A DNA stretch of 64,000 bases from Sphingomicrobium sp. (GCA_051953395.1 JBQCIU010000040.1:25880-89879); one strand, 5' to 3'. Positions 26,594-60,967 are shown, counted from the stretch's first letter. A program made the numbers and translations. The notes: generated from the letters alone by a model not told the origin.

Positions 26594-27770
26594 CTCGCAA
26601 AATATCCCGTTTGCCGGCGCTTGCGCTCACGCGCGGCCGGGCTCGTCGGCTGAAGGAGTGCCCCAGTGGTTTGTCGAAACCTGCGGAATGAGCCTGCGAA
26701 GGAGGCGCACCGGCCATGCGCAATGGGCCGGTCACCCCGCGGCTGTTGTCCTCGCGCCTCTGGAGCGACACCAGGATGTCGGCGACCGCGGCAGCCCGAC
26801 TGCGCTCGTCTCCATTGGTGACAAGCGCCTGCTCAGGGCGCTCATACTGATTCCAGTCCACCAGTCGGCGTCCCTCGGCCCCGGCTTGCTGCCAAGGCTG
26901 GGGCAGCCGGAACGCACGCGCCACCCGCATGCAGGCGAACAACACGCCCAGGAGAATCAGGGTGAAGGCGCCGGTGAGGACGAACAGCTCGACAGGCACG
27001 GTCGGGAGGTCTTCGCCGGCCATTCGCCGGGCAAGGATCGCGGCGAGCCAGGGGCCGAGCATCGCCAGTTCGAATCCCAGCGCGATCGAGACTCCCACAG
27101 CTCCGAGTGCCGCCCCGGCAAGCACCCGAACCCAGCCTTCAAACAGGCTGCGAGTGGAGTCGAACATCAGGAAAGCGATGAAGAAAGGGCCGAGGGCGAG
27201 CATCAGGCCTGCCGTGGCTCGAACCCCCCCAAGCCCGGCGACCGCCGTAATCAAATAAAGGATTCTCGACCCTCCGAGCGCAAAGGCGTTGAAGCCTGCA
27301 AAGGGCGGTGGCGGAACATTGTCGGCAATGCCGACGCCGACCCCTACGATCGCCAGCTGCGCGAGGTGAGCGTCGGTGGCGTCGAGGCGCTCGACCAGGG
27401 TTCCATCCGATCCCGGGATTGCCGAGGGACGCCCGATGTCGGCGGTAAGCTGGGCGGGACCGTCGACAACCAAATCGTACACCAGCGTTCGGTAAGCGGG
27501 CCAGCTTGTTGCCAGAGTGAAGACCGCTCCGATCTTGAGCATGGCGATCGCGCCGCCCCGCAGCGTCAGTGAGCGGCCGAGGAGCAGATTATAGCCAATC
27601 AGCGCGATGAAGATCGTCAGGAAGCCGCTCAGCACGAGCGCCAGCGTCGAACCCGGCACGGCCAGTTCGTGCCAAGCATTGGATCCGAGCGCCTGCGCCT
27701 GGCAATCGATGTAATGGGTGGTCGAGCCGATGAACCCTTGAGTCAGCCGCGGACCCGAACAGAAGTCCAT
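26586..27770 (-). CDS. virB6: T4SS protein VirB6/TrbL
   Basis: Polytopic membrane protein between virB4 and virB8. LMLALGPFFIAFLMFDSTRSLFEGW motif. Confidence 0.85.
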   Translation of the reverse strand: MDFCSGPRLTQGFIGSTTHYIDCQAQALGSNAWHELAVPGSTLALVLSGFLTIFIALIGYNLLLGRSLTLRGGAIAMLKIGAVFTLATSWPAYRTLVYDLVVDGPAQLTADIGRPSAIPGSDGTLVERLDATDAHLAQLAIVGVGVGIADNVPPPPFAGFNAFALGGSRILYLITAVAGLGGVRATAGLMLALGPFFIAFLMFDSTRSLFEGWVRVLAGAALGAVGVSIALGFELAMLGPWLAAILARRMAGEDLPTVPVELFVLTGAFTLILLGVLFACMRVARAFRLPQPWQQAGAEGRRLVDWNQYERPEQALVTNGDERSRAAAVADILVSLQRREDNSRGVTGPLRMAGAPPSQAHSAGFDKPLGHSFSRRARPRVSASAGKRDILRDE

Positions 27771-30142
27771 CAAGCGACCTCCAGGAGGCGCGGAAGCCAC
27801 AGCGCCGGATCGTCGCCCGTCTCCAGCCGGATTTCATCGAGCAGCCGGACTGTCCGCTCGCGGCCGGAAAGCACCGTGAGGAGCTCTTTCTCGCCCGACA
27901 GGTTCAGGCGCGCCACGACGCTGTCGTTGCCATGCTTGATAAGAAAGCAATGGGCACTGTCGGGAAGCGTTCGCACGAGGTCGAGCTCGTGCTCGGTCAG
28001 GCCGAACCCATCGATATAATCGGCGGCGGCCGCCTTCGGATTCGACATGAAGATCTGGGTCGCCGACTGCTCGATGACGGCGCTTGCGATCCGGCTTTCG
28101 AGCGCATCGCGCGCGCTTTGCGTTACAAATCCTACGATCCCGTTGCGCTTGCGGATCGTCTTTTCCCAATCCTTGAGGCGAGCAACGAACACCTCGTCGT
28201 CAAGCGCTTTCCAGCCTTCGTCGATGACCAAGATCGCCGGGCTTCCATCGAGCCGCTCCTCGACCCTGTGGAACAGGTACATCATGGCCGGAGTCCGGCT
28301 GGCCGGATCGTCGAGGATCTGGGTCATGTCGAACCCGACCGTGTCGGCGGCGACGTCAGTCAGGTCCCTGTCATTGTCGAACAGCCACGCGCGCTCGCCG
28401 TCGCCCCACCACGGCCTCAAACGCGCCCACAGGTCGGAACCGTGGGGACGATGGCCGCCGCGAAACAGCTCGACGATGTAGCGCAGCCGCTGATGAACGG
28501 ACGGCTGCCGGGCGTTGGCGTCGACCGCGTCCTTGATCCGCGCGAGTTCCTCGGCGTCCACGCCGCCCGCGAGGACGCTCAGCCATTCGATCAGGAATTG
28601 CCGGTGGGCCGGAGTGTCGGGGAGCTGCAGCGGGTTGAGCCCGGATGGAACGCCAGGACGAAGAACGTCGTAGCGGCCGCCGATCGCCCGGACGAACAGT
28701 TCGGCGCCCCGATCCTTGTCGAAGAAGACGATCCGGGGCGCGTACTTGCGGGCTTGCGCCAGCAGGAAATTGAGGACGACCGTCTTGCCCGATCCCGACG
28801 GCCCGATCACCGTGAAATTACCCAAGTCGCGCTGGTGGAAGTTGAAGAAATAGGGTCCCGCTGCGGTCGTCTCCAGGAGCGTCACCGCCTCGCCCCAGTG
28901 ATTGCCGCTCGGGCGCCCAAGAGCAAAATTGTGGCAGCTTGCAAGGCCTGCAAAGTTGCTGGTCGAAACTAGGCCGCGGCGGGCAATATATTTGAAATTG
29001 CCCGGGAACTGCGCCCAGAAAGCGGGCTCAAGGGCGATGTCCTCGCGAACGCTCAGGATCCCGAGATCGGCAAGTGCGGCCTGGGCTTCGGCGCATCCGT
29101 CATTCACCTCCTCGGCCGAGTTGCCGCGTATCGCGATCGTCATGTGATGCTCACCGAACCCGGCGCGGCCGGCGGCGACCTGATCCTTGGCATCGCCGAG
29201 TTCGCCGCGAAGGCTGATCGCTTCGTCTTCGGCCGACCTCATCCGGCGGAGCGCAAGGTTCATCCGCGACAGCGCCGCCTGCCGCTCGACGAAGGCGAAC
29301 GACTGCGACAGAACCATCTCGAAAGGCAGTCGAAGAAGCTCGTCGAGCATGCCGGGCGCGGTCTGCCCCGGATAATCCTTGATCGACACCAATCCCAGGA
29401 ACGACCGGTCCGTCGCGCCGGTCCGGCCGAGCTCCACCAGATCCTCGCCGAAGCTCACGCGCCGATACGGGAGATAGTCGCCGATGTCCTGCATCGGAAG
29501 CAGAACTGGGCGCATCTCCCCGTTGAAAAGGTAGGACAGGAACTCGAGCAGCTCGGAACCGGGTCCCTGCCCTGTCTGGTAGACGCCGAGAAGCCTCGGC
29601 TCATAATTTGCGAGCGATGCAAGGAGGCCGTCGCGCGCCTGTTCAAGCGCCTGCAGCTCGAACCGAGCGCCGATCGGACCGCCGGCCATCGATCGTCCGA
29701 ATCTCTTCTGTAGCCGGTCGAGCGTACCGATGCGGCCCTGGATCGGGCGGCGAACCAGCGTCAGGAACAGGTCGTTGACGTAGAGCTTGCGGGTGGAGAG
29801 GCGCGCCTTCCAAGTCTCGTCGAGCTTGCGCGAGAAACCGTCCGGATAGGGCGAAGTCAGCGCAACGTCCGCCTGTCGACGGACGATGTGGTGGTAAATC
29901 GCGAAGCGCGACGAGCCGATTGACTGCAGCACCGCGTCTCGAAGCCGCTTGCGGTAGTTGAGCTCGTCACTGTCGGCGGTCTCAAACAGCAACCCGCGGA
30001 GCTGGACGATTTGAATCAGCAGGCCGTCGCGAGTCTCGATCGTATGGTCGTCGACATGCCGCGCGTACGGCAGGTGCCTGCCCGCCGATTGCTCGCGCGC
30101 GATGATCTTCGGGTCGTCGGTCAGGCGCGGTAGGAGTTGCAT
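27770..30142 (-). CDS. virB4: T4SS ATPase VirB4
   Basis: Start MQLLPRL at 30142. HLPYARHVDD, Walker A GPSGSGKT, FFDKDRGAE, ILVIDEGW, IRKRNG, FVTQS. Confidence 0.94.
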   Translation of the reverse strand: MQLLPRLTDDPKIIAREQSAGRHLPYARHVDDHTIETRDGLLIQIVQLRGLLFETADSDELNYRKRLRDAVLQSIGSSRFAIYHHIVRRQADVALTSPYPDGFSRKLDETWKARLSTRKLYVNDLFLTLVRRPIQGRIGTLDRLQKRFGRSMAGGPIGARFELQALEQARDGLLASLANYEPRLLGVYQTGQGPGSELLEFLSYLFNGEMRPVLLPMQDIGDYLPYRRVSFGEDLVELGRTGATDRSFLGLVSIKDYPGQTAPGMLDELLRLPFEMVLSQSFAFVERQAALSRMNLALRRMRSAEDEAISLRGELGDAKDQVAAGRAGFGEHHMTIAIRGNSAEEVNDGCAEAQAALADLGILSVREDIALEPAFWAQFPGNFKYIARRGLVSTSNFAGLASCHNFALGRPSGNHWGEAVTLLETTAAGPYFFNFHQRDLGNFTVIGPSGSGKTVVLNFLLAQARKYAPRIVFFDKDRGAELFVRAIGGRYDVLRPGVPSGLNPLQLPDTPAHRQFLIEWLSVLAGGVDAEELARIKDAVDANARQPSVHQRLRYIVELFRGGHRPHGSDLWARLRPWWGDGERAWLFDNDRDLTDVAADTVGFDMTQILDDPASRTPAMMYLFHRVEERLDGSPAILVIDEGWKALDDEVFVARLKDWEKTIRKRNGIVGFVTQSARDALESRIASAVIEQSATQIFMSNPKAAAADYIDGFGLTEHELDLVRTLPDSAHCFLIKHGNDSVVARLNLSGEKELLTVLSGRERTVRLLDEIRLETGDDPALWLPRLLEVA

Positions 30143-30408
30143 CGCCAGACACGAAAATTCTTGACCCGTGGGCAGTTCGCCATGCGGGCGAGCCACAGAT
30201 CGAAAATGCGCGGCTCCTTCAGACACAGCAATACGCCCGCGACATGCACAGCGAGTGCCGCAAGCAGCACCCAGGCGGAACGAAAGATGAGGAACAGCTC
30301 GGTCGAGACGATCAGGTTTGCGACGAAATAGCTGTAGGTCACGCCGGCAAACATCTGCGGCCGAGTCAGCGCGACGAACAGAGGATCTCGCTCGAGCGCG
30401 CCGCTCAT
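30121..30408 (-). CDS. virB3: T4SS protein VirB3
   Basis: DPLFVALTRPQMFAGVTY, two TMs, C-terminal NSYRA. Confidence 0.9.
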   Translation of the reverse strand: MSGALERDPLFVALTRPQMFAGVTYSYFVANLIVSTELFLIFRSAWVLLAALAVHVAGVLLCLKEPRIFDLWLARMANCPRVKNFRVWRCNSYRA

Positions 30409-30731
30409 TGTCCCAGTGTCGCGCTTGAGTGGATTCCGGCGACAATCGAGGAGGCGCCAAACAGAACGAAGCAGCCGATGATGACCGTCACACCATAGCG
30501 CCAGTTGATACGGCCGGTCAGCATCATGAAGCCGACCGTGGCGACAGCAATGATCGCCGCAACCGTTGCAACTGTGCCGAGCAATGTACCCTGCAACCAG
30601 CTCATTGCTGACACGATCGCGTTGGATCCTGCCGGATCAGAATAAGCGTATTGCGCTGCGACAGGATCGGAAAGCACGAGCGTCGAAAACGCCGCTACAA
30701 TTGGCCAGATCGCAATTCTAATGGGATGCAT
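30405..30731 (-). CDS. virB2: T4SS pilin VirB2/TrbC
   Basis: Signal peptide, WLQGTLLGTVATVAAIIAVATVGFMMLTGR...IGCFVLFGA. Confidence 0.88.
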   Translation of the reverse strand: MHPIRIAIWPIVAAFSTLVLSDPVAAQYAYSDPAGSNAIVSAMSWLQGTLLGTVATVAAIIAVATVGFMMLTGRINWRYGVTVIIGCFVLFGASSIVAGIHSSATLGQ

Positions 30732-30881
30732 GGCACCCGTTGTCCCACTGCGATTCGGCACAGCTATCCTGCGTCAGATGCAATGGGTTGCCAACGCCGA
30801 GTCTGGCGAAAATTACTTCCGAAATGGAAGGATTGAGCAGCTAACAGGAATGCCCACCGGCGTTCCTAAAGGGGTCGATCT

Positions 30882-35327: not shown

Positions 35328-35831
35328 ATGCGCTTTCTCACCAAATTTGCGCTCGCGCTCGTCCTCCCCGCTTTTGTGCCCGCCGAGCCATTCCCGCCGC
35401 TGACGACGCTCACGTATACGGGGCACGCCGCTGTTGTCCCCGAGGGGCTCCAGTTCAAGTGCACCCCGACTGCGGTCTATGACGGCGATGGTCCGGTGTG
35501 GTGCGCCGAGGGCCCGAAGATCCGCATCGCAGGCGTTGCGGCCCGGGAAATGGATGGCACCTGCCGGTCAAACCAGCCTTGCCCGCCGGTGGGAGCGATC
35601 GACGCCCGCGACCGGTTGGTGCAACTCTTCGGCGGCCCGAAAGGCCGGTTGGCGACCGGTCATATCGTTGTCCACTCTGCGGCGATGACCTGTCTTTCCG
35701 AAGGATCGGCCGGTGGATCGCGGACGGCCGCGTGGTGCCGGTCGCCGGTATTCGGTGATCTCTCGTGCGCCGTCCTCCGCGCCGGCGGCGTGCTCAGGTG
35801 GCCCCGCTACTGGCGCGATCACAGGTGCTGA
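35328..35831 (+). CDS. Thermonuclease (SNase)-like protein with a signal-like N-terminus
   Basis: VYDGDG...KIRIAGVAARE, a variant of the SNase DGDT...RL.GIDAPE motif; Cys-rich. Confidence 0.72.
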   Translation: MRFLTKFALALVLPAFVPAEPFPPLTTLTYTGHAAVVPEGLQFKCTPTAVYDGDGPVWCAEGPKIRIAGVAAREMDGTCRSNQPCPPVGAIDARDRLVQLFGGPKGRLATGHIVVHSAAMTCLSEGSAGGSRTAAWCRSPVFGDLSCAVLRAGGVLRWPRYWRDHRC

Positions 35832-35835
35832 CGCG

Positions 35836-37245
35836 ATGAATCCGCTCGACGCTCTGCGCGAATTTCTAAGGCCGAAAGGCGTCACGATCGCACTGCCCGA
35901 CTCGCCCTTCGTCGCAATTGATGCCGACAGGGAGGCCGAAAGACTCAACATCGACAAGCGCGCGGAGGAGCGCGGCAAGTCCGAGCTCCCGGCAACCGAT
36001 TCTGCTGAGTCCGATGTCGTTGAGTCAGAGATTGCCGGTGAAATGGCCGAGCAGCTCAACCGCGCCCAGATCGACGCCGAAAATCACATCAAGGTGTACG
36101 GTCAGCGGCTGGCTGAGCTGTCATCGCTGCACGACCTTTCGTTTGTCACGGGTGCCAGCGAAACCGCGCTCGGCGATTACCGGACGGCAATCAACGTCCG
36201 TCGCAACCGCCTGGCGAATGCCCGCGACTCCATACGGGAGTCGTACGACGAACTTCAGTTATTCAAGAAGGATCACGGGCTGCGGAGGCCGGCGCACGAT
36301 ATTCCGTCGCCGGTCTATACGTGGTCCGTCGTCATCATATCCTGGATCCTGGAATCGCTGGGCAACACCGCGTTCCTGCGCGTGAATGATGCATTTGGCC
36401 TCGTCGGCGGATTCGTGGCCGCGACGGTAGTCGCCGGCGTGAATGTCGGAGTCTCCGCTTTCATCGGCCGCAAAGTCTGGCCCTACCTCTTTCATCGGGA
36501 CCGATGGCGCAATCTGCTGGCCTGGGCTGGCTGTGCCGCCTGGGTCATTCTGCTGGTTAGCTGGAATTTGCTCGCAGCCCACTTTCGGGACGCGAAATCG
36601 ATGGGAATCGCGGATCCTGAAACGCAGGCGCTTGCACTCCTCACGGCTCACCCGCTGAAGCTCGCAAGCATCTACTCGTACGGGCTGCTCCTGCTCGGTT
36701 TTATCTTCGGCTCGGCGTCCGCTGCCGCCGGTTTCAAGATGGACGATCCCTATCCCGGCTATGGTCCGATCTACCGGCGGCACGAGGCCAGGTGTGACGA
36801 CTATGCCGATGAAATCGAGGATGCGTTTGAGGAACTTCAGGAGATCCGCGGAGCCCACATGGCACTGCTCGAGTCGGTCCGGGATCAGATCCGATCCCAG
36901 TTCGCCGAGCGCGGTCAGATTATCGAAAGCCGCAAGGCACTGGTCAGTCGTTTCGCAGCGCACCAGGATTATCTCGAGACCGTCGGCCGCAGACTGCTGG
37001 ACCGCTACAGGGACGGCAACCGCGCCGCCAGGACCACGCCCCCGCCTGCGCATTTTGACGATCCGTTTCGCCTCGCTCGGGTGTCACTGCCGGCGTTCAC
37101 CGATCCACCCTCCATCGAAGACGAAGTCGAGCGCGCTCAGGCGTCGCTGGCACAGTCCATCCAGACCATAAGTCAGGCCTACAACGATGCGCTGCAGAGC
37201 TTCGAATCTCTCGATCATATCAAGGCATCGCTGACCAATGGCTAG
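35836..37245 (+). CDS. 4-TM membrane protein with N- and C-terminal coiled regions
   Basis: Four hydrophobic segments at about aa 160-300, followed by FKMDDPYPGY. Starts 4 nt after the nuclease gene and overlaps the next gene. Confidence 0.75.
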   Translation: MNPLDALREFLRPKGVTIALPDSPFVAIDADREAERLNIDKRAEERGKSELPATDSAESDVVESEIAGEMAEQLNRAQIDAENHIKVYGQRLAELSSLHDLSFVTGASETALGDYRTAINVRRNRLANARDSIRESYDELQLFKKDHGLRRPAHDIPSPVYTWSVVIISWILESLGNTAFLRVNDAFGLVGGFVAATVVAGVNVGVSAFIGRKVWPYLFHRDRWRNLLAWAGCAAWVILLVSWNLLAAHFRDAKSMGIADPETQALALLTAHPLKLASIYSYGLLLLGFIFGSASAAAGFKMDDPYPGYGPIYRRHEARCDDYADEIEDAFEELQEIRGAHMALLESVRDQIRSQFAERGQIIESRKALVSRFAAHQDYLETVGRRLLDRYRDGNRAARTTPPPAHFDDPFRLARVSLPAFTDPPSIEDEVERAQASLAQSIQTISQAYNDALQSFESLDHIKASLTNG

Positions 37246-38056
37246 GCGTCGTACCCGGGCGGCAGAGAGGAAACGTTCCCAGAACGTCAAAGCCGCGCGC
37301 AATATCGGAATTGCGGTCGCATTCCTCGCGATCGTCGCGGTCTTTTACGTGAAGGCGATGCTCGCTCACAGATCACTGGACGACGATACGCTCTGTCCCG
37401 CTGATCCCGCCAGCATCACGGTTCTGCTGGTCGATGTTACCGATCCGATGAATGTGCCGCAGCGGCAGGATTTCCTCAATCAGCTTGACCGACTTCGCTC
37501 CTCAATCCCGCGCTACGGCAAACTCGTGGTGTACAAGGTCGATCCTGTTTCGGATCGACTGCTGACACCGGTTATCACGCGGTGCAATCCGGGGACGGCC
37601 CGGGACGTCAGCGATGTCACGGGCAATCCGCAACAGGTTCAGAGGGACTGGAGCGAGAAGTTCAAGGCACCGCTTGATAAAGCCTTTGAGTCGGTGCTCT
37701 CGGCCTCGGGCGCTGATCGGTCGCCGATCCTTGAATCAGTGCAATCGGCTGCGTTGACCGATCTGCAGGCGCCGTCCGCGGACGCCAAGCCGAGGCGACT
37801 GATTATCGCCTCAGACCTTCTCCAGAACACGGATGCGATAAGCTTCTATCGTGGCCTGCCCGAACCGGCCGACCTTACGAGCAGCCAGGCCTTCTCGAGG
37901 GTGAGGACCGATCTTCGCGGCGTCGACGTCGAGCTGTGGATGCTGCAGCGCGATGACTCGCGACTGACGCAACCGCGCGCGCTCATCGATCTGTGGGATC
38001 AGATTATCACCAAGGAGGGCGGCACCCTCCAGCGCGAGTACACAGTGAGCGGATGA
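37238..38056 (+). CDS. Membrane-anchored vWA-like protein
   Basis: Single N-terminal TM, VLLVDVTD (MIDAS-like), SPILE, RRLIIASDLLQN. Confidence 0.68.
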   Translation: MARRRTRAAERKRSQNVKAARNIGIAVAFLAIVAVFYVKAMLAHRSLDDDTLCPADPASITVLLVDVTDPMNVPQRQDFLNQLDRLRSSIPRYGKLVVYKVDPVSDRLLTPVITRCNPGTARDVSDVTGNPQQVQRDWSEKFKAPLDKAFESVLSASGADRSPILESVQSAALTDLQAPSADAKPRRLIIASDLLQNTDAISFYRGLPEPADLTSSQAFSRVRTDLRGVDVELWMLQRDDSRLTQPRALIDLWDQIITKEGGTLQREYTVSG

Positions 38057-38059
38057 GTG

Positions 38060-39307
38060 ATGGACGAGCATAAAATTTCCTTCGTGAATCGGCTGCAGGA
38101 ACGGGGTCTTGTCGATCGGTGGGGATTCGCGCTGTTCGCCGGCGCGGGTGCAGCTGGAATTGTAGCCGCAAAATGGCTCGAAGCCCCCGCGCTCTGGGTC
38201 GCCGTCGGCGCCGTGATCGTCATGCTGGCTTACGCAGCATTGATCTCACGCTACGGGTCCGGCCGGCTGCGCTCCGATCAGGCGGGGGATAATTGCTATT
38301 ACCTCGGCCTCATCTACACGCTCGCCAGCCTGGCGTACGCCATCGTCACCTTCGACCCGGCGAACACCGCCACAACCATCGTCCAGGGCTTCGGGATCGC
38401 ATTGGCGACCACGATTGTGGGCCTCGTTCTTCGTGTGGTTTTCAATCAGGGGCGCCCGGATCTTGAAGAGGTCGAAAGCGGCGCCCGGCGTGACCTGCTT
38501 GAGGCCGTTGCACTGCTGAAAACCGAGCTTGGCCAAGCCGTCGTGTCAATGAACGATTTCGGTCGGCAGGTGCGCCAGTCGATCTCCGAAACTCGTGAGG
38601 CCGCGACCTCGGATATCACGAACTTCGCTGAAACCGCCGTCACTGGATTGCGGGAAGTCATGGACGCAGCGAAATCGGCTCTGGAGACCGAGGCGGCTGA
38701 TTTTGCCTCGCGAATCAAGCGACACGGCGCCGCGGTCGACAGGCTGGTTTCCACCCTTGAGGCGCATGGCGCAAATCTCGATCGGCTGGCAACCGCCCAT
38801 GAGCAGGTTGCCGGCACGCTCGAAAATATTGCCGCCGCAGGAGCCGAAGCGAGGGACGCCACGCGGGGATTGGCTGAGCAGGCTGAGGCCGCGTCCTCGG
38901 TACTCGCAACGGTTCGCGAAAGCAGCGATTCTGTCCGACAGTCATCAGATGCCCTCGGCCGCGCAGCATCGGACGTGCGGGAATCAGTGTCGAATTTCGG
39001 CCAGGAAATCAGCGAGCAGCTCCGATCTCTTCGGGTAGCTCCGGGCGCGGCGGTCGCCGAAGCGACGGACGCGCTGGCAAAATCGTCGGCTGCAGTGCGG
39101 GGAGAACTTGAGGCTCTGACGGCGGCACAGCGCAACGCCGCCAGTTCGATAAGCGAGCAGGCAGCAGCCGCGACCGAATCAGTCCGCCGCCACAACGCTG
39201 CAATGGAAGCGGAGCTCAGCCGCTCCCGCGACCTGGTCGAGAAGGTGCACGCAAATCTGGTGGATATGACCAGTGAGCTGGTTCGGCGGGTCGACGGTCA
39301 GCAATAA
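38060..39307 (+). CDS. MotA/TolQ/ExbB-like channel subunit with a long coiled-coil tail (ZorA-like)
   Basis: TM cluster with YYLGLIYTLASL and GFGIALATTIVGL, then about 280 aa of Ala-rich heptad sequence. Confidence 0.75.
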   Translation: MDEHKISFVNRLQERGLVDRWGFALFAGAGAAGIVAAKWLEAPALWVAVGAVIVMLAYAALISRYGSGRLRSDQAGDNCYYLGLIYTLASLAYAIVTFDPANTATTIVQGFGIALATTIVGLVLRVVFNQGRPDLEEVESGARRDLLEAVALLKTELGQAVVSMNDFGRQVRQSISETREAATSDITNFAETAVTGLREVMDAAKSALETEAADFASRIKRHGAAVDRLVSTLEAHGANLDRLATAHEQVAGTLENIAAAGAEARDATRGLAEQAEAASSVLATVRESSDSVRQSSDALGRAASDVRESVSNFGQEISEQLRSLRVAPGAAVAEATDALAKSSAAVRGELEALTAAQRNAASSISEQAAAATESVRRHNAAMEAELSRSRDLVEKVHANLVDMTSELVRRVDGQQ

Positions 39308-40228
39308 ATGGCGCGCTTCGATATCCGACAGGACCGACCGTATCGCCGCGGACTGGTGCTCGGCCTGACCATCGCCGAGATCATGATCCTTCTGATCTTC
39401 CTGTTGCTGATGGCGCTGGCTGCTGCGCTCGCAAATAGAGAAAAGCGCCTCAACGCACTTGAGAACGGGACGGGAAGCCGTCTGGTTGAGGCGATCCAGG
39501 CAGCATATCCGAATGCGGAGAAACCTGACGATTACTACAAGGAACTGGTCCGCGCGATTGAGGCCCGCCAGGCACTGGAGAAGTCCGGCCTGGATTCCGC
39601 CCGCGAGCACCTTGCGGATGATGCCGACCTGGGAAAGCGCGTCCGCGAGGAGGCAGCGAAAGCCGGCGCCGCCGATCCCTGGGATTTTGCAACGAAAGCA
39701 GTCGCAAAAGCGGGCGCAGGAAAGAAGGGGGAATGGCCGCCATTTTTCAGCCTGAGCGAGGCGGGCGGCTATTACTTCGACAGCGGCAAGGCAACGCTTC
39801 GCCCCGAGTTTGAGCGAAACCTTCGCTCGGTGATCATCCCGCTCCTGAAACGCAACATCGATGATTATGGCGTCGATGTTGTCGAGGTGATCGGCCACAC
39901 TGATGAAGTTCCCATGGTCGGCACCTCCAACCTGGACCGCGCGCTTATTCCGGCCTCAGTCAGCCGGATACCGATCGAACAGCTTCACTCGACCGATAAT
40001 GCCGGACTCGCAATCGCGCGCGCAGTTGCTGTGGTCAGAATATTGAGGGCCGACCCGCGGCTTCGCGGTGTGACCATACTTCCGCTTTCCGGCGCGCAGA
40101 TGATCGTGCCCGTTGATCATCCCGCCGATGGAAGTGCGAAGGGCGACGATCAGCGCAGGCGCCGGATTGAAATCCGCTTGCGGCGTTCAACTGAACAGGT
40201 CGCAACTTCGGTGCGGCCGGCGCACTGA
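39308..40228 (+). CDS. MotB/OmpA-like protein (ZorB-like)
   Basis: N-terminal TM LTIAEIMILLIFLLL and a C-terminal OmpA-like domain (FDSGKATL, VEVIGHTD, N..LAIARA..V, RRRIEI). Confidence 0.82.
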   Translation: MARFDIRQDRPYRRGLVLGLTIAEIMILLIFLLLMALAAALANREKRLNALENGTGSRLVEAIQAAYPNAEKPDDYYKELVRAIEARQALEKSGLDSAREHLADDADLGKRVREEAAKAGAADPWDFATKAVAKAGAGKKGEWPPFFSLSEAGGYYFDSGKATLRPEFERNLRSVIIPLLKRNIDDYGVDVVEVIGHTDEVPMVGTSNLDRALIPASVSRIPIEQLHSTDNAGLAIARAVAVVRILRADPRLRGVTILPLSGAQMIVPVDHPADGSAKGDDQRRRRIEIRLRRSTEQVATSVRPAH

Positions 40229-40692
40229 TGGACCGGATAGACGAAAACCTGCAGCGCCTTTGGGCCATCGTGCGGCAGGGCGACATCGGGGAGCTTCAAG
40301 CCGCGGAAGTTCTTCAGCCCTATGACGAACAGAGGAAGGAATCTCCTCCTCAACCGATATCGACGAAATCTTCTGCGCAGGCGAAGCCCGCAGCTGAGGT
40401 TCCGCAGCACCCAGAGGACGAGAGGGAGAACTCTGCCCTGGTTGGAACTCCCACTCCGCCCCTGCGGGGGATGATTACAAGCCGGAATGATGCGCAGCTC
40501 TCCCCGCGGGCGTCCTCGCTGACCAACTTTCGCCCCGAAACCGCGCACATGGATACGTTATTCGAAGAACCCCGTCGTGATGGTCAGGCATGGCCGGCTG
40601 TCGAAAGCGATCCACGACGTTTCATTCGTCGGGATCCGCCTCCCGAGCCGGAAGGCTTCATGAGGCGCCTCCTCAGACGCCTCGGCTTCTGA
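40228..40692 (+). CDS. Hypothetical Pro-rich protein, last gene of the MotA/B-like operon
   Basis: TGATG coupling to the upstream gene; low complexity. Confidence 0.5.
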   Translation: MDRIDENLQRLWAIVRQGDIGELQAAEVLQPYDEQRKESPPQPISTKSSAQAKPAAEVPQHPEDERENSALVGTPTPPLRGMITSRNDAQLSPRASSLTNFRPETAHMDTLFEEPRRDGQAWPAVESDPRRFIRRDPPPEPEGFMRRLLRRLGF

Positions 40693-41127: not shown

Positions 41128-41552
41128 CAGCAGCGCACGTTCTCATATTTCGCACTGAAATGATCATCGGCCGACACGGCGTCTGCATTGCTCATGTAGA
41201 GCTTGCCGTCGAGCAGACTGATGCGACGCTTTCCGATGCCGACGTCGGTCTCGCCGCGATCTGCTGTCAGAACGACAACCGTGTTCGCCCACTGGCCAGA
41301 TTTCGGCCCACTCTGCCCAATCATCGGCGTCGTCTTCAGAAGTACGGCGTCCCACTCATATCCGTCGAGCCGGGTTTCGCTGATCGTGAAAGTATAAAGC
41401 GACTGGTCATCACGGCATTCTGCCGCGCTTTGAGACCACGTGCCGCGAAAGGCCGGCGCGAACACCTCTTTGCCGCCGACTTCGGTCACAAACTGGGATT
41501 CCGGAATATCGGCGACAGCGACGGCAAGAGCCAACAAAAGCATCACTCGCAT
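41127..41552 (-). CDS. Hypothetical secreted protein
   Basis: Signal peptide; F.GTWS....EC motif; coupled to both neighbours. Confidence 0.65.
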   Translation of the reverse strand: MRVMLLLALAVAVADIPESQFVTEVGGKEVFAPAFRGTWSQSAAECRDDQSLYTFTISETRLDGYEWDAVLLKTTPMIGQSGPKSGQWANTVVVLTADRGETDVGIGKRRISLLDGKLYMSNADAVSADDHFSAKYENVRC

Positions 41553-41860
41553 CCTACTCCATCGCGATCGCGATCAAGCTTCAGTGAGTATCCCGGATCG
41601 CCTGCTCGAACCGGAGCGGCGCCGGCTGCGCGGGCTTCGGCGCAATTTGCAAACGGACGGTTCGAATGCGACGAAGCTACGCCGCGACTTCCGGAGTGTG
41701 CAATGGATGCCGCTTTCCGGTGACAATGATTATCGCCTGTCTTCCGGTTGTGGTGACACCCGTTTGCATCGAGTCCTCCCGGATGGGCTGAGGTCGGCGA
41801 GGAGGCCGATACGGCAACGAATGGCGACGCAAGCAATACGAACACGCTCAGCAGGCGCAT
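41543..41860 (-). CDS. Excalibur calcium-binding domain protein with a His-rich N-terminal motif
   Basis: AHPGGLDANGCH...HCH and FANCAEARAAGAAPV..GDPGY..KLDRDRDGVGCE (DxDxDG loop). Confidence 0.85.
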   Translation of the reverse strand: MRLLSVFVLLASPFVAVSASSPTSAHPGGLDANGCHHNRKTGDNHCHRKAASIAHSGSRGVASSHSNRPFANCAEARAAGAAPVRAGDPGYSLKLDRDRDGVGCE

Positions 41861-42073: not shown

Positions 42074-43309
42074 TTGCCCGACACCGCCCCCTTCTCCGCC
42101 ACCTTCGCGCGCTCCGGCCTGTCGATCACCGAAGCCCAACGGCGGCTTGGGGTGTCTGAGCGGCAGATTCATCGCTACCTTTCCGGCGAATGTCCGCCTC
42201 CCAAGTTGGTCGATGAGAAAGTTCGCGAGATCGCCGGTGCCCGCAGCGCAGATCGGCCGGAGCCTGCCTTCCGGTTCATTGACCTCTTTGCCGGAATCGG
42301 TGGGCTTCGCCTGGGGTTTGAAGCGATCGGAGGGCGCTGCGTCTTTACGAGTGAATGGGACCGGTTCGCTCAGAAGACGTACCTGCGCAATTTTGCAGAT
42401 GGCGAGGAACACGTCATGGCGGGTGACATCCGGCCTTACGGCGCGGCCCCATCGACGATTCCCCGGTTCGATGTTTTGCTCGCCGGATTTCCCTGCCAGC
42501 CATTCTCATTGGCCGGCGTATCCAAGAAGAACTCGCTCGGCCGTCTCCACGGTTTTGCCGACGAGAAGCAGGGCAACCTCTTTTTCGAGATCGAACGGAT
42601 TCTGCGACATCACCGGCCGGCGGCGTTTCTCCTTGAGAATGTGAAGCATCTCACGCGCCACGACCGAGGCAACACCTTCGAAGTGATCCGCCGCACGCTT
42701 GCGGATGAGCTCGGCTACGCCATCGACTGGCGCGTCATCAGCTCGGCACCTTGGGTACCGCAGCACCGCGAGCGCATCTTCATCGTTGGTTTCCGCGAGG
42801 AGGTCGGCTTCGGTTTCGATGGCTTCGACGCTGTCATCCCGGAAGTGAAGGACTGGCCGAAGCTTGGTTCGATCCTGCAGGGGCACAACGAAGTCGATTC
42901 CAAGTACACGCTCACACCAAGGCTCTGGGAATATCTGCAGGCCTACCGCGCCAAGCACGAGAAGGCGGGCAACGGCTTCGGATACAGTCTGTTCGGGAAG
43001 GACAGCGTGACCCGCACACTGTCAGCGAGGTACCACAAGGACGGGTCCGAGATCCTGATCGAGCAGAAGGGTACCCGGCCGCGCCGGCTGACGCCGACCG
43101 AATGTGCACGGCTGATGGGATTCGAACACGGTGAACGCACCTGGGACACGAGCGCCGTGTCGGACACGCAGGCGTACCGGCAGTTCGGCAACGCCGTGGT
43201 TGTTCCGGTTGTTGAGGCGATTGCGCGCTATATGGAGCCGTCGCTGAAGAAGATGCTGGAATTTGACCGCACCGACCGCACCCGGAAAAAAACGCGAAAG
43301 GTTGCGTAA
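42074..43309 (+). CDS. dcm: DNA (cytosine-5) methyltransferase with an N-terminal HTH
   Basis: FIDLFAGIGG, AGFPCQPFS, LLENV, Q.RERIFIVG, RRLTP.ECARLMGF, YRQFGNAV. N-terminal AQRRLGVSERQIHRYLSG HTH. Confidence 0.94.
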   Translation: MPDTAPFSATFARSGLSITEAQRRLGVSERQIHRYLSGECPPPKLVDEKVREIAGARSADRPEPAFRFIDLFAGIGGLRLGFEAIGGRCVFTSEWDRFAQKTYLRNFADGEEHVMAGDIRPYGAAPSTIPRFDVLLAGFPCQPFSLAGVSKKNSLGRLHGFADEKQGNLFFEIERILRHHRPAAFLLENVKHLTRHDRGNTFEVIRRTLADELGYAIDWRVISSAPWVPQHRERIFIVGFREEVGFGFDGFDAVIPEVKDWPKLGSILQGHNEVDSKYTLTPRLWEYLQAYRAKHEKAGNGFGYSLFGKDSVTRTLSARYHKDGSEILIEQKGTRPRRLTPTECARLMGFEHGERTWDTSAVSDTQAYRQFGNAVVVPVVEAIARYMEPSLKKMLEFDRTDRTRKKTRKVA

Positions 43310-43754
43310 GCCCTCGCCGGCCCGCAGCCGCAACATGGCGGCAATCGGACCGAAGGACACGAAGCCCGAGCTCATCGTCAGGAAGCTGCTCCACAGGGCG
43401 GGCTTCCGATTCCGACTTCATCGAAAAGATCTGCCCGGCAAACCGGATCTGACTCTGCCGAAGTGGAACGCGCTCATTGAGGTGCAGGGCTGCTTCTTCC
43501 ACTCGCATGATTGTCACTTCGTCAGGAAGCGGCCTGCCGACAATGCTGAGTTCTGGGCGAAGAAGCTGGATGGGAATGTCGCGCGGGATCGAAAAAATGC
43601 CGAGGCCGCTGCAGCACTGGGGTGGCGCAGACTTGTCGTGTGGCAGTGCGCCCTGACCGGGAAAGCGCGACTTGATCAGACGGACCTGCTTTCCCGGATT
43701 TCCGAATGGCTCCGCGGGAACGACAGGACAGGCGAGATCCGCGGGACGGACTGA
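43302..43754 (+). CDS. vsr: Very short patch repair endonuclease
   Basis: RSRNMAAI..KDTKPE..VRK.LH..GFRFRLH...LPGKPD...GCFFH.H.C. Start uncertain (TTG 43302). Confidence 0.9.
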   Translation: MRKPSPARSRNMAAIGPKDTKPELIVRKLLHRAGFRFRLHRKDLPGKPDLTLPKWNALIEVQGCFFHSHDCHFVRKRPADNAEFWAKKLDGNVARDRKNAEAAAALGWRRLVVWQCALTGKARLDQTDLLSRISEWLRGNDRTGEIRGTD

Positions 43755-43798
43755 CACCGGGATTGCGGCGGAGATGATGGGGCGTCATCGTTCGCTGC

Positions 43799-45142
43799 AT
43801 GCCCGTGCGTACCATTCCGGAGCTGCAGCAGCTGTTCGCCCGTCACGGCGTCCGCACGCTCTACATCAAGCATCTCGCGCCGAAGCAGGATAACGAGAAG
43901 AACCAGATCTATCTGGGCAAGGGCCTCGACGGCGTCCTCAACCTGTTTCCCGCGCGGATTGTCGAGCGGTCGGCGAGTGAGAGCACTGCAAAGCCGAAAT
44001 CCAGGACCGGAAAGCCGAAGCTCGAAGGGCTGATCGAACTCGCGTGGCTGCAGGAGGGCGGAGCTCTTGCGCGTGTGCCCGGCGCGCGCATTATCGATTA
44101 CTTCCAGTATCCGGAGGCTCGCCTCTCGGGGTTCCTCGCTGGATGTGAAGCCGCGCCCCGAGCGCTCCGCCGCGACGGGCTCAGCGACTTCGGCCGACGG
44201 ATCCTCGTGCTCGGAACGACGCCTTCCGGTCTGGTCGTGGGGAAGGTCCTCACCGAGCGTGATGATCCGCTGGTGCGGGATTTTCCGGAGCTCCCGGTGC
44301 TCGCAGCAGTACCGGTCTTCAGAGTCCTTTCTGTTGCCGGGGCTGCGGGCGTTTCGCCTCTTCAACTGCTGCTCGGTGAACTGCGGCAGATCGTTTCTGC
44401 AGGGTGGCACGCATCCGTGATCCTCAAGCCCGGCGCGTCGTCGCCGGTACCGTTCAGCGGCAATCAGGGTGCCGGCTACACGCTCGAGGCGTTGCTCGGT
44501 GTTGCCGCGAATGCCGCCAAGGAGCCCGACGCTCACGGCTACGAGATCAAGAGCTACCGTGGCGATCGGATCAGCCTCATGACCCCGACGCCGGATGGCG
44601 GATACCAGGGCGAACACAGCTTTCGGGAGTTCATGGAGCGGTACGGGCGGGAAGCGAAAAAGGCCGACGGCAGCCGCCGGTTTACCGGTCTGCATCGGGT
44701 GGGATCCGTCTCTGCGACAACCGGTCTCGGACTTCGGGTGCGCGGCTACGATCCGCATGCGGACAGCTTTGATGCGGATGGCATCGCCGTTGAAATGTTC
44801 GATCCCGAAACCGGGACGGTGGCTGCCTCCTGGTCGCTTGAGCGGCTGGCAAACAGCTGGAACGCAAAGCACGCGTCGGCGATGTATGTGCCGGCCGAAG
44901 CCCGCGAAACTGCCGACGGCGAAGCTCAATATCGCTATGGTTCAGAGGTCCTGGTCGGCGAGGGAACCGACGTCTTTCGATTGTTGCGGGCGATTCACCG
45001 CGGTCTCGTGTGGTACGACCCGGCGGACAGCATCTATGCTGACGGTACCGCGAAGGTAAGGCCGCAGTGGCGGACGGGCTCGCGTAGGCTCGAGCAGACC
45101 ATGCACACGCTCTACCGCAGCGCTCGTCAGGTGAGGATCTGA
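43799..45142 (+). CDS. MvaI/BcnI family restriction endonuclease
   Basis: GAGYTLEALLGVAAN...PD..GYEIKS catalytic segment; follows dcm-vsr. Confidence 0.8.
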   Translation: MPVRTIPELQQLFARHGVRTLYIKHLAPKQDNEKNQIYLGKGLDGVLNLFPARIVERSASESTAKPKSRTGKPKLEGLIELAWLQEGGALARVPGARIIDYFQYPEARLSGFLAGCEAAPRALRRDGLSDFGRRILVLGTTPSGLVVGKVLTERDDPLVRDFPELPVLAAVPVFRVLSVAGAAGVSPLQLLLGELRQIVSAGWHASVILKPGASSPVPFSGNQGAGYTLEALLGVAANAAKEPDAHGYEIKSYRGDRISLMTPTPDGGYQGEHSFREFMERYGREAKKADGSRRFTGLHRVGSVSATTGLGLRVRGYDPHADSFDADGIAVEMFDPETGTVAASWSLERLANSWNAKHASAMYVPAEARETADGEAQYRYGSEVLVGEGTDVFRLLRAIHRGLVWYDPADSIYADGTAKVRPQWRTGSRRLEQTMHTLYRSARQVRI

Positions 45143-45629: not shown

Positions 45630-46043
45630 ATGGAAGACCTGGCCCGTCAGATTTCCGCTCTCGAAAAACTGCGTAAGGCTGAGCTGAGGGAGCGATGGAC
45701 GAAGGTCACCGCACGAAGAGCTCCGAGTGTCAGCGCGCCGCTGCTGCGTCTGGCGATCGCGTGGGAGCTGCAGGCGCGCATGTACGGTGGCCTCTCCCGT
45801 CAGACGCAGCAGCGGCTTGAGCAGGTCGCACGCGGGAAGACCCGCACGCGCACCTCAGAACCGGGCATGCGGCTGGTACGCGCCTGGAACGGACGCACGC
45901 ACATTGTCACAGTCGGAGAGGACGGCGTCATCCGCTGGAACGACCGGGAGTGGCGAAGCCTCAGCGAGGTTGCCCGCGCAATCACTGGAACGCGCTGGTC
46001 GGGGCCCGCCTTCTTCGGTCTAAAGCAGAAGCGCGTTGCGTGA
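45630..46043 (+). CDS. DUF2924 family protein
   Basis: AWELQAR.YGGL, PG.RLVR.W.G..H.V.V, SLSEVARAITGTRWSGPAFFGL. Confidence 0.88.
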   Translation: MEDLARQISALEKLRKAELRERWTKVTARRAPSVSAPLLRLAIAWELQARMYGGLSRQTQQRLEQVARGKTRTRTSEPGMRLVRAWNGRTHIVTVGEDGVIRWNDREWRSLSEVARAITGTRWSGPAFFGLKQKRVA

Positions 46044-47725
46044 CTCAGGTTCGCTGCGCCATCTACACCCGCAAGTCGAGCGAGGAAGGGCTCGAGCAGG
46101 ACTTCAACTCCCTGCATGCGCAGCGGGAGGCCTGCTCCGCATACGTGCTCAGCCAGGCCAGCGAGGGCTGGACCGCGCTTCCTGATGAATATGACGACGG
46201 CGGTCTGTCGGGCGGATCGCTCGGCAGGCCCGCGCTGCAGCGGCTGCTTGAGGACATCGAGGTCGGTCGGATCGACATCGTTGTCGTCTACAAGGTTGAT
46301 CGGCTGACCCGGTCGCTGCTCGACTTTGCCAAACTTGTCGAGGCGTTTGACGGGGCAGGCGTGTCTTTCGTATCGGTGACCCAGTCGTTCAACACCACCA
46401 CGAGTATGGGGCGCCTGACGCTGAACATGCTGCTGAGCTTCGCGCAGTTCGAGCGCGAGGTCACAGCCGAGCGCATTCGCGACAAGATTGCGGCGTCCAA
46501 GGCCAGAGGCATGTGGATGGGCGGAACTCCGCCGCTCGGTTACGCTCCCGACGGTCGGAGCCTCGCGATTGTCGAGGAACACGCTGGCCTCGTTCGGATG
46601 ATCTACGGGCGCTATCGCGAGCTCGGCAACGTGCGGCACCTGGCCGAAGAGCTGCAGGCTAAGGAGATCCTCACTCCGGTTCGAAGCACCCGCACCGGCA
46701 GGACCTTCGGCGGGTGCGCGTTCAGCCGCGGGCAGCTCTACGCCATTCTCCGCAACCCGGTCTACGTTGGTGACATCGCGCACCACGGCAAGGTGCACCC
46801 CGGTAACCATCCGGCGATCATCGACCGCGAGACGTGGGAGTCAGTTCAGACGCAGCTTGCCGACAACATCAGAGGCAAGCGTTCAGCCCGAGAAGCAAAC
46901 GCCAGCATGCTCTCGGGCCGGCTGTTCGACGAAACCGGAGAACCGCTGATCGCGGTGCACAGTCGCAAGGGCGACCGTCGGTATCGCTACTACGTCAGCA
47001 GGTCAGCGCACCATCAGGATGGGCGTAATCGTCGCACGACCGTCCGCATGCCGGCGAGCGATATTGAACAGCTGGTCTGCACTGAGCTGGCGAAGATGCT
47101 CGGCAGGTCAGTCGATCTGCTCGCAAGGTGTCACATCGATGTTGCGCCATCGCAGCTTGAGACGGCCCTGGAGAAGTGCGCAAAGCTGGCCATCAGAGCG
47201 GCGAAGCGCGACCAGACGCTCGTCCGCACATCCGTCGAAAGCGTCAGCGTGCACCCTGACGCGGTCGAGATCGCCGTCACTCCGGCGGGGCTGACGAAGC
47301 TGCTCGGGCTGGTGGACCCGAACGACGCGACACCAGTCGTCCACCGCGTTGCGGCACGTCTCACGCGCACTGGCCGCGCATTGCGTTTGGTCGACGACAG
47401 CGGTTTAGCTGCTTGTGAAGCGGCCCCTGACGAGACGATGGCACGGCTCGTCGTTCGGGCTCGAACCTGGTGGGCAACGCTGGAGCAGACAGGCCAGACG
47501 GTTTCTGAGCTTGCCACCTCGGAAGGCGTGACAGCCTCATATCTGACGCGTGTGCTCAGGCTCGCGTTTCTTTCGCCCAAGGTTGTATCTGCGGTTCTCA
47601 GTGGCTCATTGCGCGCAGGTATCGATTCATCGCGTCTCTTCTGCGCCGACGCCATCACTCTCGATTGGGCCGGACAACGTCGCGCGCTGCTGCCGAGAGA
47701 GTCCGCGGATGCAACATCGTCGTAG
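46040..47725 (+). CDS. Large serine recombinase (second copy)
   Basis: RCAIYTRKSSEEGLEQDFNSLHAQREAC, VVYKVDRLTRSL, LLSFAQFEREVTAERIRDKI, GGTPPLGY. GTG start overlaps the DUF2924 stop. Confidence 0.93.
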   Translation: MTQVRCAIYTRKSSEEGLEQDFNSLHAQREACSAYVLSQASEGWTALPDEYDDGGLSGGSLGRPALQRLLEDIEVGRIDIVVVYKVDRLTRSLLDFAKLVEAFDGAGVSFVSVTQSFNTTTSMGRLTLNMLLSFAQFEREVTAERIRDKIAASKARGMWMGGTPPLGYAPDGRSLAIVEEHAGLVRMIYGRYRELGNVRHLAEELQAKEILTPVRSTRTGRTFGGCAFSRGQLYAILRNPVYVGDIAHHGKVHPGNHPAIIDRETWESVQTQLADNIRGKRSAREANASMLSGRLFDETGEPLIAVHSRKGDRRYRYYVSRSAHHQDGRNRRTTVRMPASDIEQLVCTELAKMLGRSVDLLARCHIDVAPSQLETALEKCAKLAIRAAKRDQTLVRTSVESVSVHPDAVEIAVTPAGLTKLLGLVDPNDATPVVHRVAARLTRTGRALRLVDDSGLAACEAAPDETMARLVVRARTWWATLEQTGQTVSELATSEGVTASYLTRVLRLAFLSPKVVSAVLSGSLRAGIDSSRLFCADAITLDWAGQRRALLPRESADATSS

Positions 47726-60873: not shown

Positions 60874-60967
60874 GCGCCTGATTTAATCCGAATGCCCCCT
60901 CGCGTGCGGGAAAATCGCGCGATAGACAAAGGGGCTGCTTCACCCTGGAAGGATATCCGCGCCAACG

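Follow-up and report, generated by a model that had tools for sequence, protein, structure and literature searches.

In a 64,000-nucleotide stretch of DNA from Sphingomicrobium sp. (GCA_051953395.1 JBQCIU010000040.1:25880-89879; hereafter the window, in whose coordinates positions are given), six closely packed genes, g1 to g6, occupy positions 35328-40692, and four of them, g2-g3-g4-g5, form a unit that recurs in the same order in distant bacteria. This unit encodes an inner-membrane protein with four transmembrane (TM) helices, a TM-anchored protein with a predicted vWA fold, and a pair of proteins with the sequence hallmarks of an ion-driven motor of the MotA/MotB type, akin to ZorA and ZorB of the Zorya anti-phage system; a gene for an SNase-type nuclease directed out of the cytoplasm frequently lies beside it. 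The module is widespread but unannotated, and its architecture is new. The four inner-membrane proteins, taken together with the exported SNase, may be regarded as a good candidate for a new immunity system, possibly one in which DNA is cut outside the cytoplasm. Our preferred reading, which we put forward tentatively and with a defensive role suggested by genomic context, is that the operon encodes an undescribed, Zorya-like, envelope-embedded system directed against invading DNA.

Gene order and conservation of the g2-g5 cassette

All six open reading frames (ORFs) lie on the + strand, in agreement with the gene calls of two near-identical public contigs (L061 and L062). The successive junctions from g1/g2 to g5/g6 measure +4, -8, +3, 0 and -1 nucleotides, and a gap of 306 nucleotides lies 5' of g1. 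The first gene, g1 (35328..35831), encodes a secreted SNase-like protein of 167 amino acids with the signal peptide MRFLTKFALALVLPAFVPA and eight cysteines. It is followed by g2 (35836..37245), whose 469-residue product, a 4-TM inner-membrane protein with a DPYPGY motif, is the marker of the system, and by g3 (37238..38056), which starts 8 nucleotides inside g2 and encodes the 272-residue protein with the predicted vWA fold and its TM anchor. The putative motor is encoded by g4 (38060..39307; 415 residues), a minimal, ZorA-like channel subunit of the MotA/ExbB/TolQ family, and g5 (39308..40228; 306 residues), a MotB/ZorB-like axle subunit, the stop codon of which is overlapped by the start of g6 (40228..40692), an ORF of 154 codons rich in proline, glutamate and arginine. 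An earlier note on this DNA, made from the sequence alone, had described six tightly packed genes on one strand; its coordinates and description were right, save that the starts of g2 (ATG at 35836) and g4 (ATG at 38060, with GTG at 38057 also possible) shift slightly. A scan of the region for consensus promoters and terminators returned matches at or below the level expected from shuffled sequence.

Synteny was examined by tblastn and chaining of ORFs in 49 loci collected by a pattern scan, with one genome per species. The genes g2, g3, g4 and g5 keep the same order and orientation, with products of ~470-500, 270-285, 310-585 and 300-485 amino acids, respectively. Under strict motifs, g3, g4 and g5 are all present in 24 of the 37 loci that extend at least 4.5 kb downstream; two false negatives of the regular expressions (L001 and L004) were recovered by tblastn, giving a full cassette in ~26 of 37. 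The hosts include Sphingomonadales, Xanthomonadales, Caulobacterales, Rhizobiales, Azospirillales, Bdellovibrionota, Desulfobacterota and Gemmatimonadota, among others, and the DDPYPGY-vWA-MotA-MotB core singled out in the earlier note is thereby seen to keep its order across phyla. Because the order g2-g3-g4-g5 recurs in dozens of distant genomes, the arrangement is not due to chance, and these four genes are the conserved unit. Both g2 and g4 occur on one and the same set of 24 plasmids, of which 11 are conjugative; a nucleotide search of plasmids with the 6-kb region gave no match.

The packing that had suggested a six-gene operon is therefore real, but its conserved part is confined to g2-g5, with g6 and the nuclease outside the core. 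Although g6 is called as a gene in the two near-identical contigs, it has no match in Pfam, NCBIfam or PADLOC, and tblastn located no counterpart of it at the 49 related loci; for this last reason it was dropped as a component of the system. Judged by these searches, it is lineage-specific.

The 4-TM protein g2 and the vWA protein g3

The 4-TM protein belongs to a large family that carries no name. No family match to g2 was found in Pfam, NCBIfam or PADLOC, weak matches to DUF4407, HisKA_3 and Trypco1 (E>0.05) were treated as noise, with papers on DUF4407 offering nothing informative, and the 119 close homologues are all annotated as hypothetical. A profile search of 1.84 billion representative sequences (E≤1e-10) places 2,974 clusters at 50% identity in the family. 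Since g2 was absent from every phage genome record searched, we do not regard it as phage-borne. As first described, g2 is a DDPYPGY protein with four TM helices; the DPYP tetrapeptide is invariant across the family (alignment A1), and the DPYPGY motif directly follows TM4, at its cytoplasmic end. The AlphaFold2 (AF2) model is all-helical, with a predicted local distance difference test (pLDDT) score of 86, and comprises an N-terminal hairpin (helices 60-94 and 99-146), the four TM helices and a helix of ~90 residues (308-397). Both termini would be cytoplasmic by the positive-inside rule, and ~300 residues of coiled coil are assigned to the cytoplasm from the AF2 model and the charge bias. 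Fold searches in the PDB and BFVD returned coiled-coil noise only, with template-modelling scores ≤0.25.

For g3, sequence comparison was likewise empty: no family match was found in Pfam, NCBIfam or PADLOC, nor among PDB sequences with a g3 profile. The AF2 model (pLDDT 86.7, predicted template-modelling score 0.80) consists of a long N-terminal helix followed by an alpha/beta domain, and nearly all of the top 50 PDB matches to it in Foldseek are vWA or integrin I domains (probability 0.96-1.0, best E 9e-5), including those of TFIIH p44, ArnAB, Rpn10, vWF A1, integrin I and the membrane-anchored BatB. The domain is thus predicted to have the Rossmann-like alpha/beta fold of the vWA type. It carries a site that resembles the metal ion-dependent adhesion site (MIDAS), D66-x-T68-D69-P70 ... 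S162-P163 ... S192-D193, in which the second serine of the canonical D-x-S-x-S is missing. Among 40 diverse homologues, D66 and D193 are invariant, S162 is found in 39, as many as have T or S at position 68, while D69, P163, S192 and the cysteine pair C53/C116 are invariant or nearly so. The TM anchor spans residues 25-43, with the N-terminus inside and five lysine or arginine residues upstream of it against one downstream. Because this charge bias is strong and the cysteine pair is conserved, the vWA domain probably faces the periplasm, which agrees with the periplasm-facing vWA protein originally proposed.

The 4-TM coiled-coil protein and its TM-anchored vWA partner form an obligate pair. 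Pairs resembling g2-g3 also occur without any MotAB-like genes, in L028, L030, L043 and L047 and in Pelagibacter (L044-L046 and L048). Downstream of such motor-less pairs lie genes for a fumarase (L028 and L030), a type IV secretion system (T4SS) coupling protein (L047) and a PrsW protease (Pelagibacter L045). From the fact that the most distant loci have g2-g3 without a motor, we infer that this pair is the deepest module of the cassette; it may function independently of the motor.

The MotA/MotB-like pair g4 and g5

Together, g4 and g5 carry the sequence hallmarks of an ion-driven unit of the MotA/MotB type, similar to ZorAB. In g4, four hydrophobic helices fall within residues 21-128, the cytoplasmic loop between TM2 and TM3 is only ~14 residues long, and a helical tail of ~285 residues follows, which matches only families of the coiled-coil type in Pfam. 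The best specific match is to the PADLOC model ZorA2 (PDLC00637; E=2.8e-10, residues 52-391), some six orders of magnitude better than the coil-only matches to JetC and LmuB (~1e-3); the NCBIfam model antiphage_ZorA_1 scored E=0.34, at 9 bits against a cut-off of 190. Comparison with 19 relatives from other genomes identified D78, Y81, Y82, G84, T88, F112, A115, T119, G122 and R126 as invariant. When the tail was left out, MotA_ExbB (PF01618) was the top Pfam family, matched by 13 of 17 family members (best 1.1e-6), whereas g4 of the window alone aligned with PF01618 at residues 76-125 below threshold (E=0.37). At the level of the family, a channel subunit is therefore recognisable by a TM hairpin of the PF01618 type and by the invariant threonines T88 and T119 in the last two helices. 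A full-length g4 profile also matched the ZorA structure 8VVN (2.9e-11). This match was discounted, as the tail-less profile matched nothing in the PDB: it is mostly coiled coil and disappears without the tail, and so is not evidence of a specific kinship with ZorA.

The partner g5 has a single TM helix (residues 16-34), oriented with its N-terminus inside and preceded by five lysine or arginine residues, with a conserved motif, YRRGLxLGLTxAE. Within it, Glu24 is invariant in 19 diverse homologues, down to 15% identity, and provides the conserved acidic residue typical of an axle subunit. A helical linker of ~110 residues leads to a divergent OmpA-like domain (GHTDE ... DNAGLAIARA) that retains the peptidoglycan-binding signature GHTD...N..L...RA in a version containing an insertion. 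The orthologues bear the RefSeq name 'OmpA family protein', and the PADLOC model ZorB1 matches at 1.6e-5. A profile of the OmpA-type subfamily gave as its best PDB matches MotB (6YSL), ZorB (8VVI and 8VVN), TssL, PomB and YiaD, all weak (E 0.006-0.16; 0.006-0.1 for the MotB, ZorB and PomB chains and 0.007-0.01 for the two ZorB structures).

Of the earlier proposals for this pair, a MotA-like protein with TM motifs and a long tail was confirmed, and the ZorA/ZorB-like architecture of the pair is supported by the ZorA2 and ZorB1 matches. The partner, described as MotB/OmpA-like, does have its one TM helix, but the match to Pfam OmpA is weak (E 1.8e-4, 22.3 bits, under the gathering cut-off of 27.2), and the TM carboxylate is Glu rather than Asp.

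Two forms of g5 share the TM segment. One, found in the window, ends in the OmpA-like domain; in the other, found in distant cassettes (L013, L015, L016, L021, L022, L025, L027, L032, L034, L035, L037 and L053), this is replaced by a cysteine-containing C-terminal domain of ~150 residues with the motifs PPCW...KPEYIFDV...CRFFVR...FY. The latter has no match in Pfam or the PDB and could be an alternative periplasmic effector or anchor.

A recurrent link to SNase-type nucleases

At 15 loci or more, an SNase gene flanks the cassette; three different positions and both strands are represented. It lies 0.1-0.5 kb 3' of g5 in L002, L003, L005-L010, L033, L050, L051 and L052, and directly 5' of g2 in L012, L014 and L021. 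On pRL11 of R. johnstonii 3841 (L057, RL_RS31080-RL_RS31100), a full cassette is accompanied by a thermonuclease gene convergent with g5 and by a PBP1A gene just upstream. The Microvirga plasmid pMVF16-4 has the SNase gene directly after g5, in a five-gene block between insertion sequence (IS) elements, and on Sinorhizobium pSS05631d genes for an Excalibur protein and a thermonuclease stand directly 5' of g2, mirroring the window. Among 246 neighbour ORFs at 25 loci, SNase is the second commonest Pfam family, with 7 matches against 10 for phage integrase. The nucleases next to the cassette in these relatives are canonical (VVDGDT...R[IV]ADID[TA]PE), with a K/R-rich N-terminus and a TM anchor or a signal peptide. 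In one metagenome-assembled genome of an uncultured alphaproteobacterium (L026:13085-14593), a MotB-like fusion combines a TM segment, a coiled coil, an OmpA-like domain and an SNase domain (Pfam SNase 4.3e-11), which suggests that the nuclease is functionally tied to the motor and located in the periplasm.

The window has no canonical SNase copy downstream of the cassette, and carries the divergent g1 type instead. This protein has no Pfam match at E≤1 and nothing usable in NCBIfam or PADLOC; its family of 1406 matches bears the JGI name 'endonuclease YncB (thermonuclease family)', and tblastn links it to the canonical SNase of L008 at 1e-6. Alignment with S. aureus SNase and other canonical SNases (alignment A7) shows that the residues corresponding to D19/D21, R35, E43 and R87 do not vary, whereas every member of the g1 subfamily has Ala in place of D40 and T41. 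In L001 and L005, too, a nuclease of the g1 type is encoded, 2-3 kb upstream of the cassette. We take g1 to be an accessory component and, it appears, a divergent subtype of thermonuclease. The signal-bearing, SNase-like nuclease of the earlier note thus keeps its signal peptide and its place in the thermonuclease family, but with Ala at D40 and T41, and as an accessory rather than a core component. Nor is the nuclease in general part of the core, frequent though it is: no nuclease is found at the cassette of Paracoccus yeei or at the loci with the alternative g5 domain.

The suggestion that the effector may act outside the cytoplasm is strengthened by the g1 signal peptide, the conserved cysteines, the TM-anchored relatives and the L026 fusion, all of which point to an extracytoplasmic nuclease. 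SNase-type enzymes need Ca2+ at levels that occur outside, and not inside, the cytoplasm. This need fits extracytoplasmic action and would explain why no immunity protein is required.

Two side observations concern these loci. A small secreted protein encoded at 41543-41860 (-) in the window carries a Ca2+-binding Excalibur domain (Pfam 1.1e-16), and Excalibur proteins also occur beside the SNase or the cassette in L001, L051, L052 and Sinorhizobium pSS05631d. R. johnstonii 3841 is a well-studied laboratory strain that would be a convenient genetic model, and for which transposon-fitness data may exist.

Relation to Zorya and other known systems

Zorya systems combine ZorAB with ZorC and ZorD (type I), with the HNH protein ZorE (type II) or with ZorF (DUF3348) and ZorG (DUF2894) (type III). 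None of ZorC, ZorD, ZorE, ZorF and ZorG was found at the locus with PADLOC and Pfam; g1, g2, g3 and g6 have no PADLOC match at E≤1 and no match to Pfam DUF3348, DUF2894 or HNH. Type III was considered and dropped, as g2 and g3 match neither these two DUFs nor the PADLOC models for ZorF and ZorG. Because the ZorA and ZorB matches are weak and the partner genes are lacking, the locus is not a Zorya of types I-III by rules of the PADLOC kind. The best HMM matches were to the ZorA2 and ZorB1 models, and the view that none of the defined Zorya partners is recognisable here is borne out.

What the cassette shares with Zorya is a MotA/ExbB-family protein with a long helical tail, a single-TM partner of the OmpA/MotB type, a location in defence islands and on mobile elements and an associated nuclease. 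The differences are considerable. In place of the Zorya partners stand two membrane proteins, g2 with its four TM helices and DPYPGY motif and g3 with its TM-anchored vWA domain, and the nuclease is of the SNase type and extracytoplasmic, whereas that of Zorya is cytoplasmic. The channel subunit g4 lacks the membrane-proximal cytoplasmic domain of ZorA and has a tail of ~285 residues rather than the ~500 of E. coli ZorA (PMC11946911). In g5, the TM carboxylate is Glu24, in place of Asp26 of E. coli ZorB, and a linker of ~110 residues precedes the peptidoglycan-binding domain, which in ZorB is fused straight to the TM segment (PMC11946911).

Other 5:2 motors (MotAB/PomAB, ExbBD, TolQR, GldLM and AglRQS) resemble the pair in several respects: a weak, family-wide MotA_ExbB similarity over the last two TM helices, a conserved channel Thr with a carboxylate in the TM segment of the partner, and the presence of MotB and PomB among the best PDB matches of the g5 family. 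Glu instead of Asp at the carboxylate position is also found in GldL. Unlike these motors, the cassette has no flagellar, TonB/TolA or gliding partners, no MotB plug domain and no large cytoplasmic loop such as MotA uses to contact FliG, and its long tail and mobile-element context are foreign to housekeeping motors. We conclude that the cassette probably works like, and is probably related to, the MotAB/ZorAB class, without belonging to a defined Zorya type.

Two further comparisons are instructive. SNIPE, a nuclease that resides constitutively at the membrane and cuts phage DNA as it is injected (PMC13190303), is similar in concept only, as a membrane-located nuclease that acts on entering phage DNA and tells self from non-self by location. 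It is a single protein at the inner membrane, unrelated in sequence and sharing no PADLOC or Pfam model with the cassette, where a periplasm-facing nuclease of the SNase type is found together with a module of four proteins, a motor among them. BatA and BatB of the aerotolerance operon resemble g3 in their TM anchor and vWA fold, and the BatB structures 3IBS and 4JDU are among its Foldseek matches. In contrast to Bat and vWA conflict systems, however, the cassette comes with no MoxR ATPase or other Bat genes, and g3 has a D-x-T-D-x rather than a D-x-S-x-S MIDAS and no family match at the sequence level. A literature search found no description of a ZorAB- or MotAB-like defence of this make-up, of a system combining vWA, MotA and nuclease, or of a 'type IV Zorya', with DefenseFinder and PADLOC models from after 2023 lying outside the comparison.

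Proposed function and alternative explanations

In the mechanism that we propose, g4 and g5 would assemble in a 5:2 ratio into an ion-driven complex anchored to the cell wall, as in ZorAB (PMC11946911, PMC11890865), which senses envelope perturbation (PMC11946911). The periplasmic vWA domain of g3, with a presumed MIDAS-like metal site and a presumed disulfide, would sense or capture something that appears in the periplasm during phage genome ejection or conjugative entry, and cytoplasmic coiled-coil contacts made by g2 would relay this event to the motor. A Ca2+-dependent nuclease, secreted in the window and anchored or fused in relatives, would then cut DNA left open to attack in the periplasm; where relatives lack a nuclease, their module may block the entry channel or act through another effector domain on g5. 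Location would decide between self and non-self, as the host keeps no DNA of its own in the periplasm. In its boldest form, this would be the first immune system in which a nuclease destroys phage or plasmid DNA in the periplasm, with the motor, the vWA sensor and the 4-TM protein gating or positioning the nuclease and with compartment alone separating self from non-self; we consider this version rather unlikely.

Several points weigh against a defensive, DNA-cutting role. The usual view is that phage DNA crosses the periplasm in a shielded state. The nuclease of the window lacks the D40 Ca2+ ligand and has no Pfam SNase match, and 13 of the 25 motor-containing loci have no nearby SNase by the strict motif. 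The match of g4 to ZorA structures does not survive removal of the coiled coil, nothing that resembles a cytoplasmic effector can be seen, and the reading leaves the g4 tail without an explained role. The association with defence islands is qualitative; the L053 cassette sits among housekeeping genes, and so do the distant, motor-less g2-g3 pairs (fumarase, PrsW), some of them in the streamlined genomes of SAR11/Pelagibacter.

The first alternative is a non-defence envelope machine, that is, a module of the Tol/Exb/Mot type driven by the proton-motive force, with a vWA adaptor, that serves envelope maintenance, the scavenging of extracellular DNA (by the nuclease and the Excalibur protein) or the biology of conjugative elements (mating-pair or entry exclusion). 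Besides the g2-g3 pairs and the occasional full cassette among housekeeping genes (L028, L030, L045 and Pelagibacter; L053), such a role would suit the position of the window cassette between T4SS genes and a recombinase, the g2-g3 pair beside a T4SS coupling protein in L047 and the conjugative nature of 11 of the 24 plasmids. Secreted SNases with Excalibur proteins are, moreover, common cargo on alphaproteobacterial plasmids and integrative conjugative elements (ICEs), the members of the g1 family greatly outnumber the close relatives of g2, and the 5:2 motors TolQR, ExbBD, GldLM and AglRQS have non-immune functions (PMC9389320). What speaks against this alternative is the patchy, mobile-element-linked distribution of the cassette, with integrases as the top neighbour family and strong defence-gene matches within 7 kb, and its travel as a unit between IS elements in Microvirga pMVF16-4. 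The best hidden Markov model (HMM) matches of g4 and g5 are to ZorA and ZorB rather than to Tol, Exb or flagellar proteins, and the cassette contains no outer-membrane or transport component. On balance, we place the non-defence machine on the unlikely side, as the alternative that survives best.

Abortive infection, in which damage to the envelope would cause the ZorAB-like channel, g2 or both to open or oligomerise, depolarising the inner membrane and killing or arresting the cell, with the nuclease as an incidental neighbour, appears improbable. It would account for the fact that the four core proteins are all membrane proteins with no recognisable enzyme, for the many loci without any nuclease and for the long coiled coils of g2, which are suited to oligomerisation; depolarisation is also the original proposal for Zorya, as cited in PMC8565338. 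Yet the nuclease, in at least 15 loci, three positions, both strands and one g5 fusion, recurs too often for incidental cargo, and characterised Zorya acts through nucleases and not through depolarisation (PMC11946911, PMC11890865). Least likely of all, and to our minds very doubtful, is the canonical Zorya mechanism with unrecognised partners, in which rotation relayed by the g4 tail would activate a cytoplasmic effector (the cytoplasmic domains of g2 or a gene elsewhere) to degrade phage DNA inside the cell: the ZorA HMM matches and tail of g4, the ~300 coiled-coil residues of g2 in the compartment that also holds this tail and the established model of tail-dependent recruitment in Zorya (PMC11946911) would favour it, but no conserved component has a cytoplasmic nuclease, helicase or other enzyme domain, ZorC to ZorG are all absent, and the sole recurrent enzyme is extracytoplasmic and of a type whose Ca2+ need is met outside the cytoplasm.

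If the envelope-embedded defence that we favour is correct, its interest would extend beyond this locus. To our knowledge, no immune system other than Zorya is based on a rotary motor of the flagellar-stator type, and how motors of the Zorya type sense infection is still being worked out. In the cassette, a motor of this kind would be seen connected to wholly different partners in the membrane and periplasm, and researchers would gain a further, independent system in which to study the signals that a 5:2 motor detects and passes on. Should the linked SNase prove to be the effector, location-based discrimination between self and non-self, as in SNIPE, would be extended to the periplasm, suggesting that DNA in transit through the envelope can be attacked. 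Even if it is not a defence system, the cassette would represent a new accessory set for a proton-driven motor, of interest to those who study motility and the envelope. Since the g2 family comprises ~3,000 clusters in many phyla, with no Pfam, NCBIfam or PADLOC model and no literature, a function for g2 would annotate thousands of operons now called hypothetical.

Genomic surroundings

In the window, the cassette stands between T4SS genes and a restriction-modification (R-M) module, with further defence-type genes beyond. The T4SS genes (22994-30761, -) include CagX/VirB9 (25104-26489), VirB4 (27770-30460), VirB3 and TrbC/VirB2. Two genes for large serine recombinases, at 17788-19740 (+) and 45950-47725 (+), bracket the T4SS genes and the cassette, and the region between them looks like an ICE or a set of nested elements; genes for DUF3489 and DUF2924 proteins precede the second recombinase. 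The R-M module (42074-45142), 1.4 kb downstream of the cassette, is a complete type II system, made up of a C5 cytosine methylase (Dcm) with an N-terminal helix-turn-helix (42074-43309), a Vsr mismatch endonuclease (43263-43754) and a restriction enzyme of the MvaI/BcnI family (43799-45142).

Farther downstream lie genes for an OLD-family nuclease (47994-49754, -), with AAA_15/AAA_21 and OLD-like TOPRIM domains and of the Gabija GajA or PARIS AriA type; for a protein with TCAD9 ('ternary complex associated domain 9') and APH kinase-like parts (51129-52781, -); and for an N6/N4 DNA methylase (57638-59158, -). The 621-residue product of 60892-62757 (+), the C-terminal third of which is a thymidylate-kinase domain, could be a nucleotide-modification or defence-related fusion.

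Relatives of the cassette have comparable neighbours, among them type I R-M genes with an integrase, MmeI, and ICE genes with ThiF/E2/BubE. Strong PADLOC matches in the neighbourhoods of the 25 loci include DpdF, type I S subunits, PDC-S02, PDC-S18, PsyrT, MkoA/MkoC, DUF499/DUF3780 and Hhe, and further IetA/IetS, HmaC, HamB and PDC-S37. The placing of the cassette in mobile elements and defence islands is thus borne out in both the window and its relatives, as a qualitative association. Motor genes of other kinds occur near some of these loci: a canonical pair of MotA_ExbB and MotB_plug/OmpA proteins is encoded 1.8 kb downstream of the L053 cassette (L053:15993-17618), and the neighbour ORFs of loci L019-L047 include Pfam matches to FliM (two) and FliN-C (three; alignment A6).

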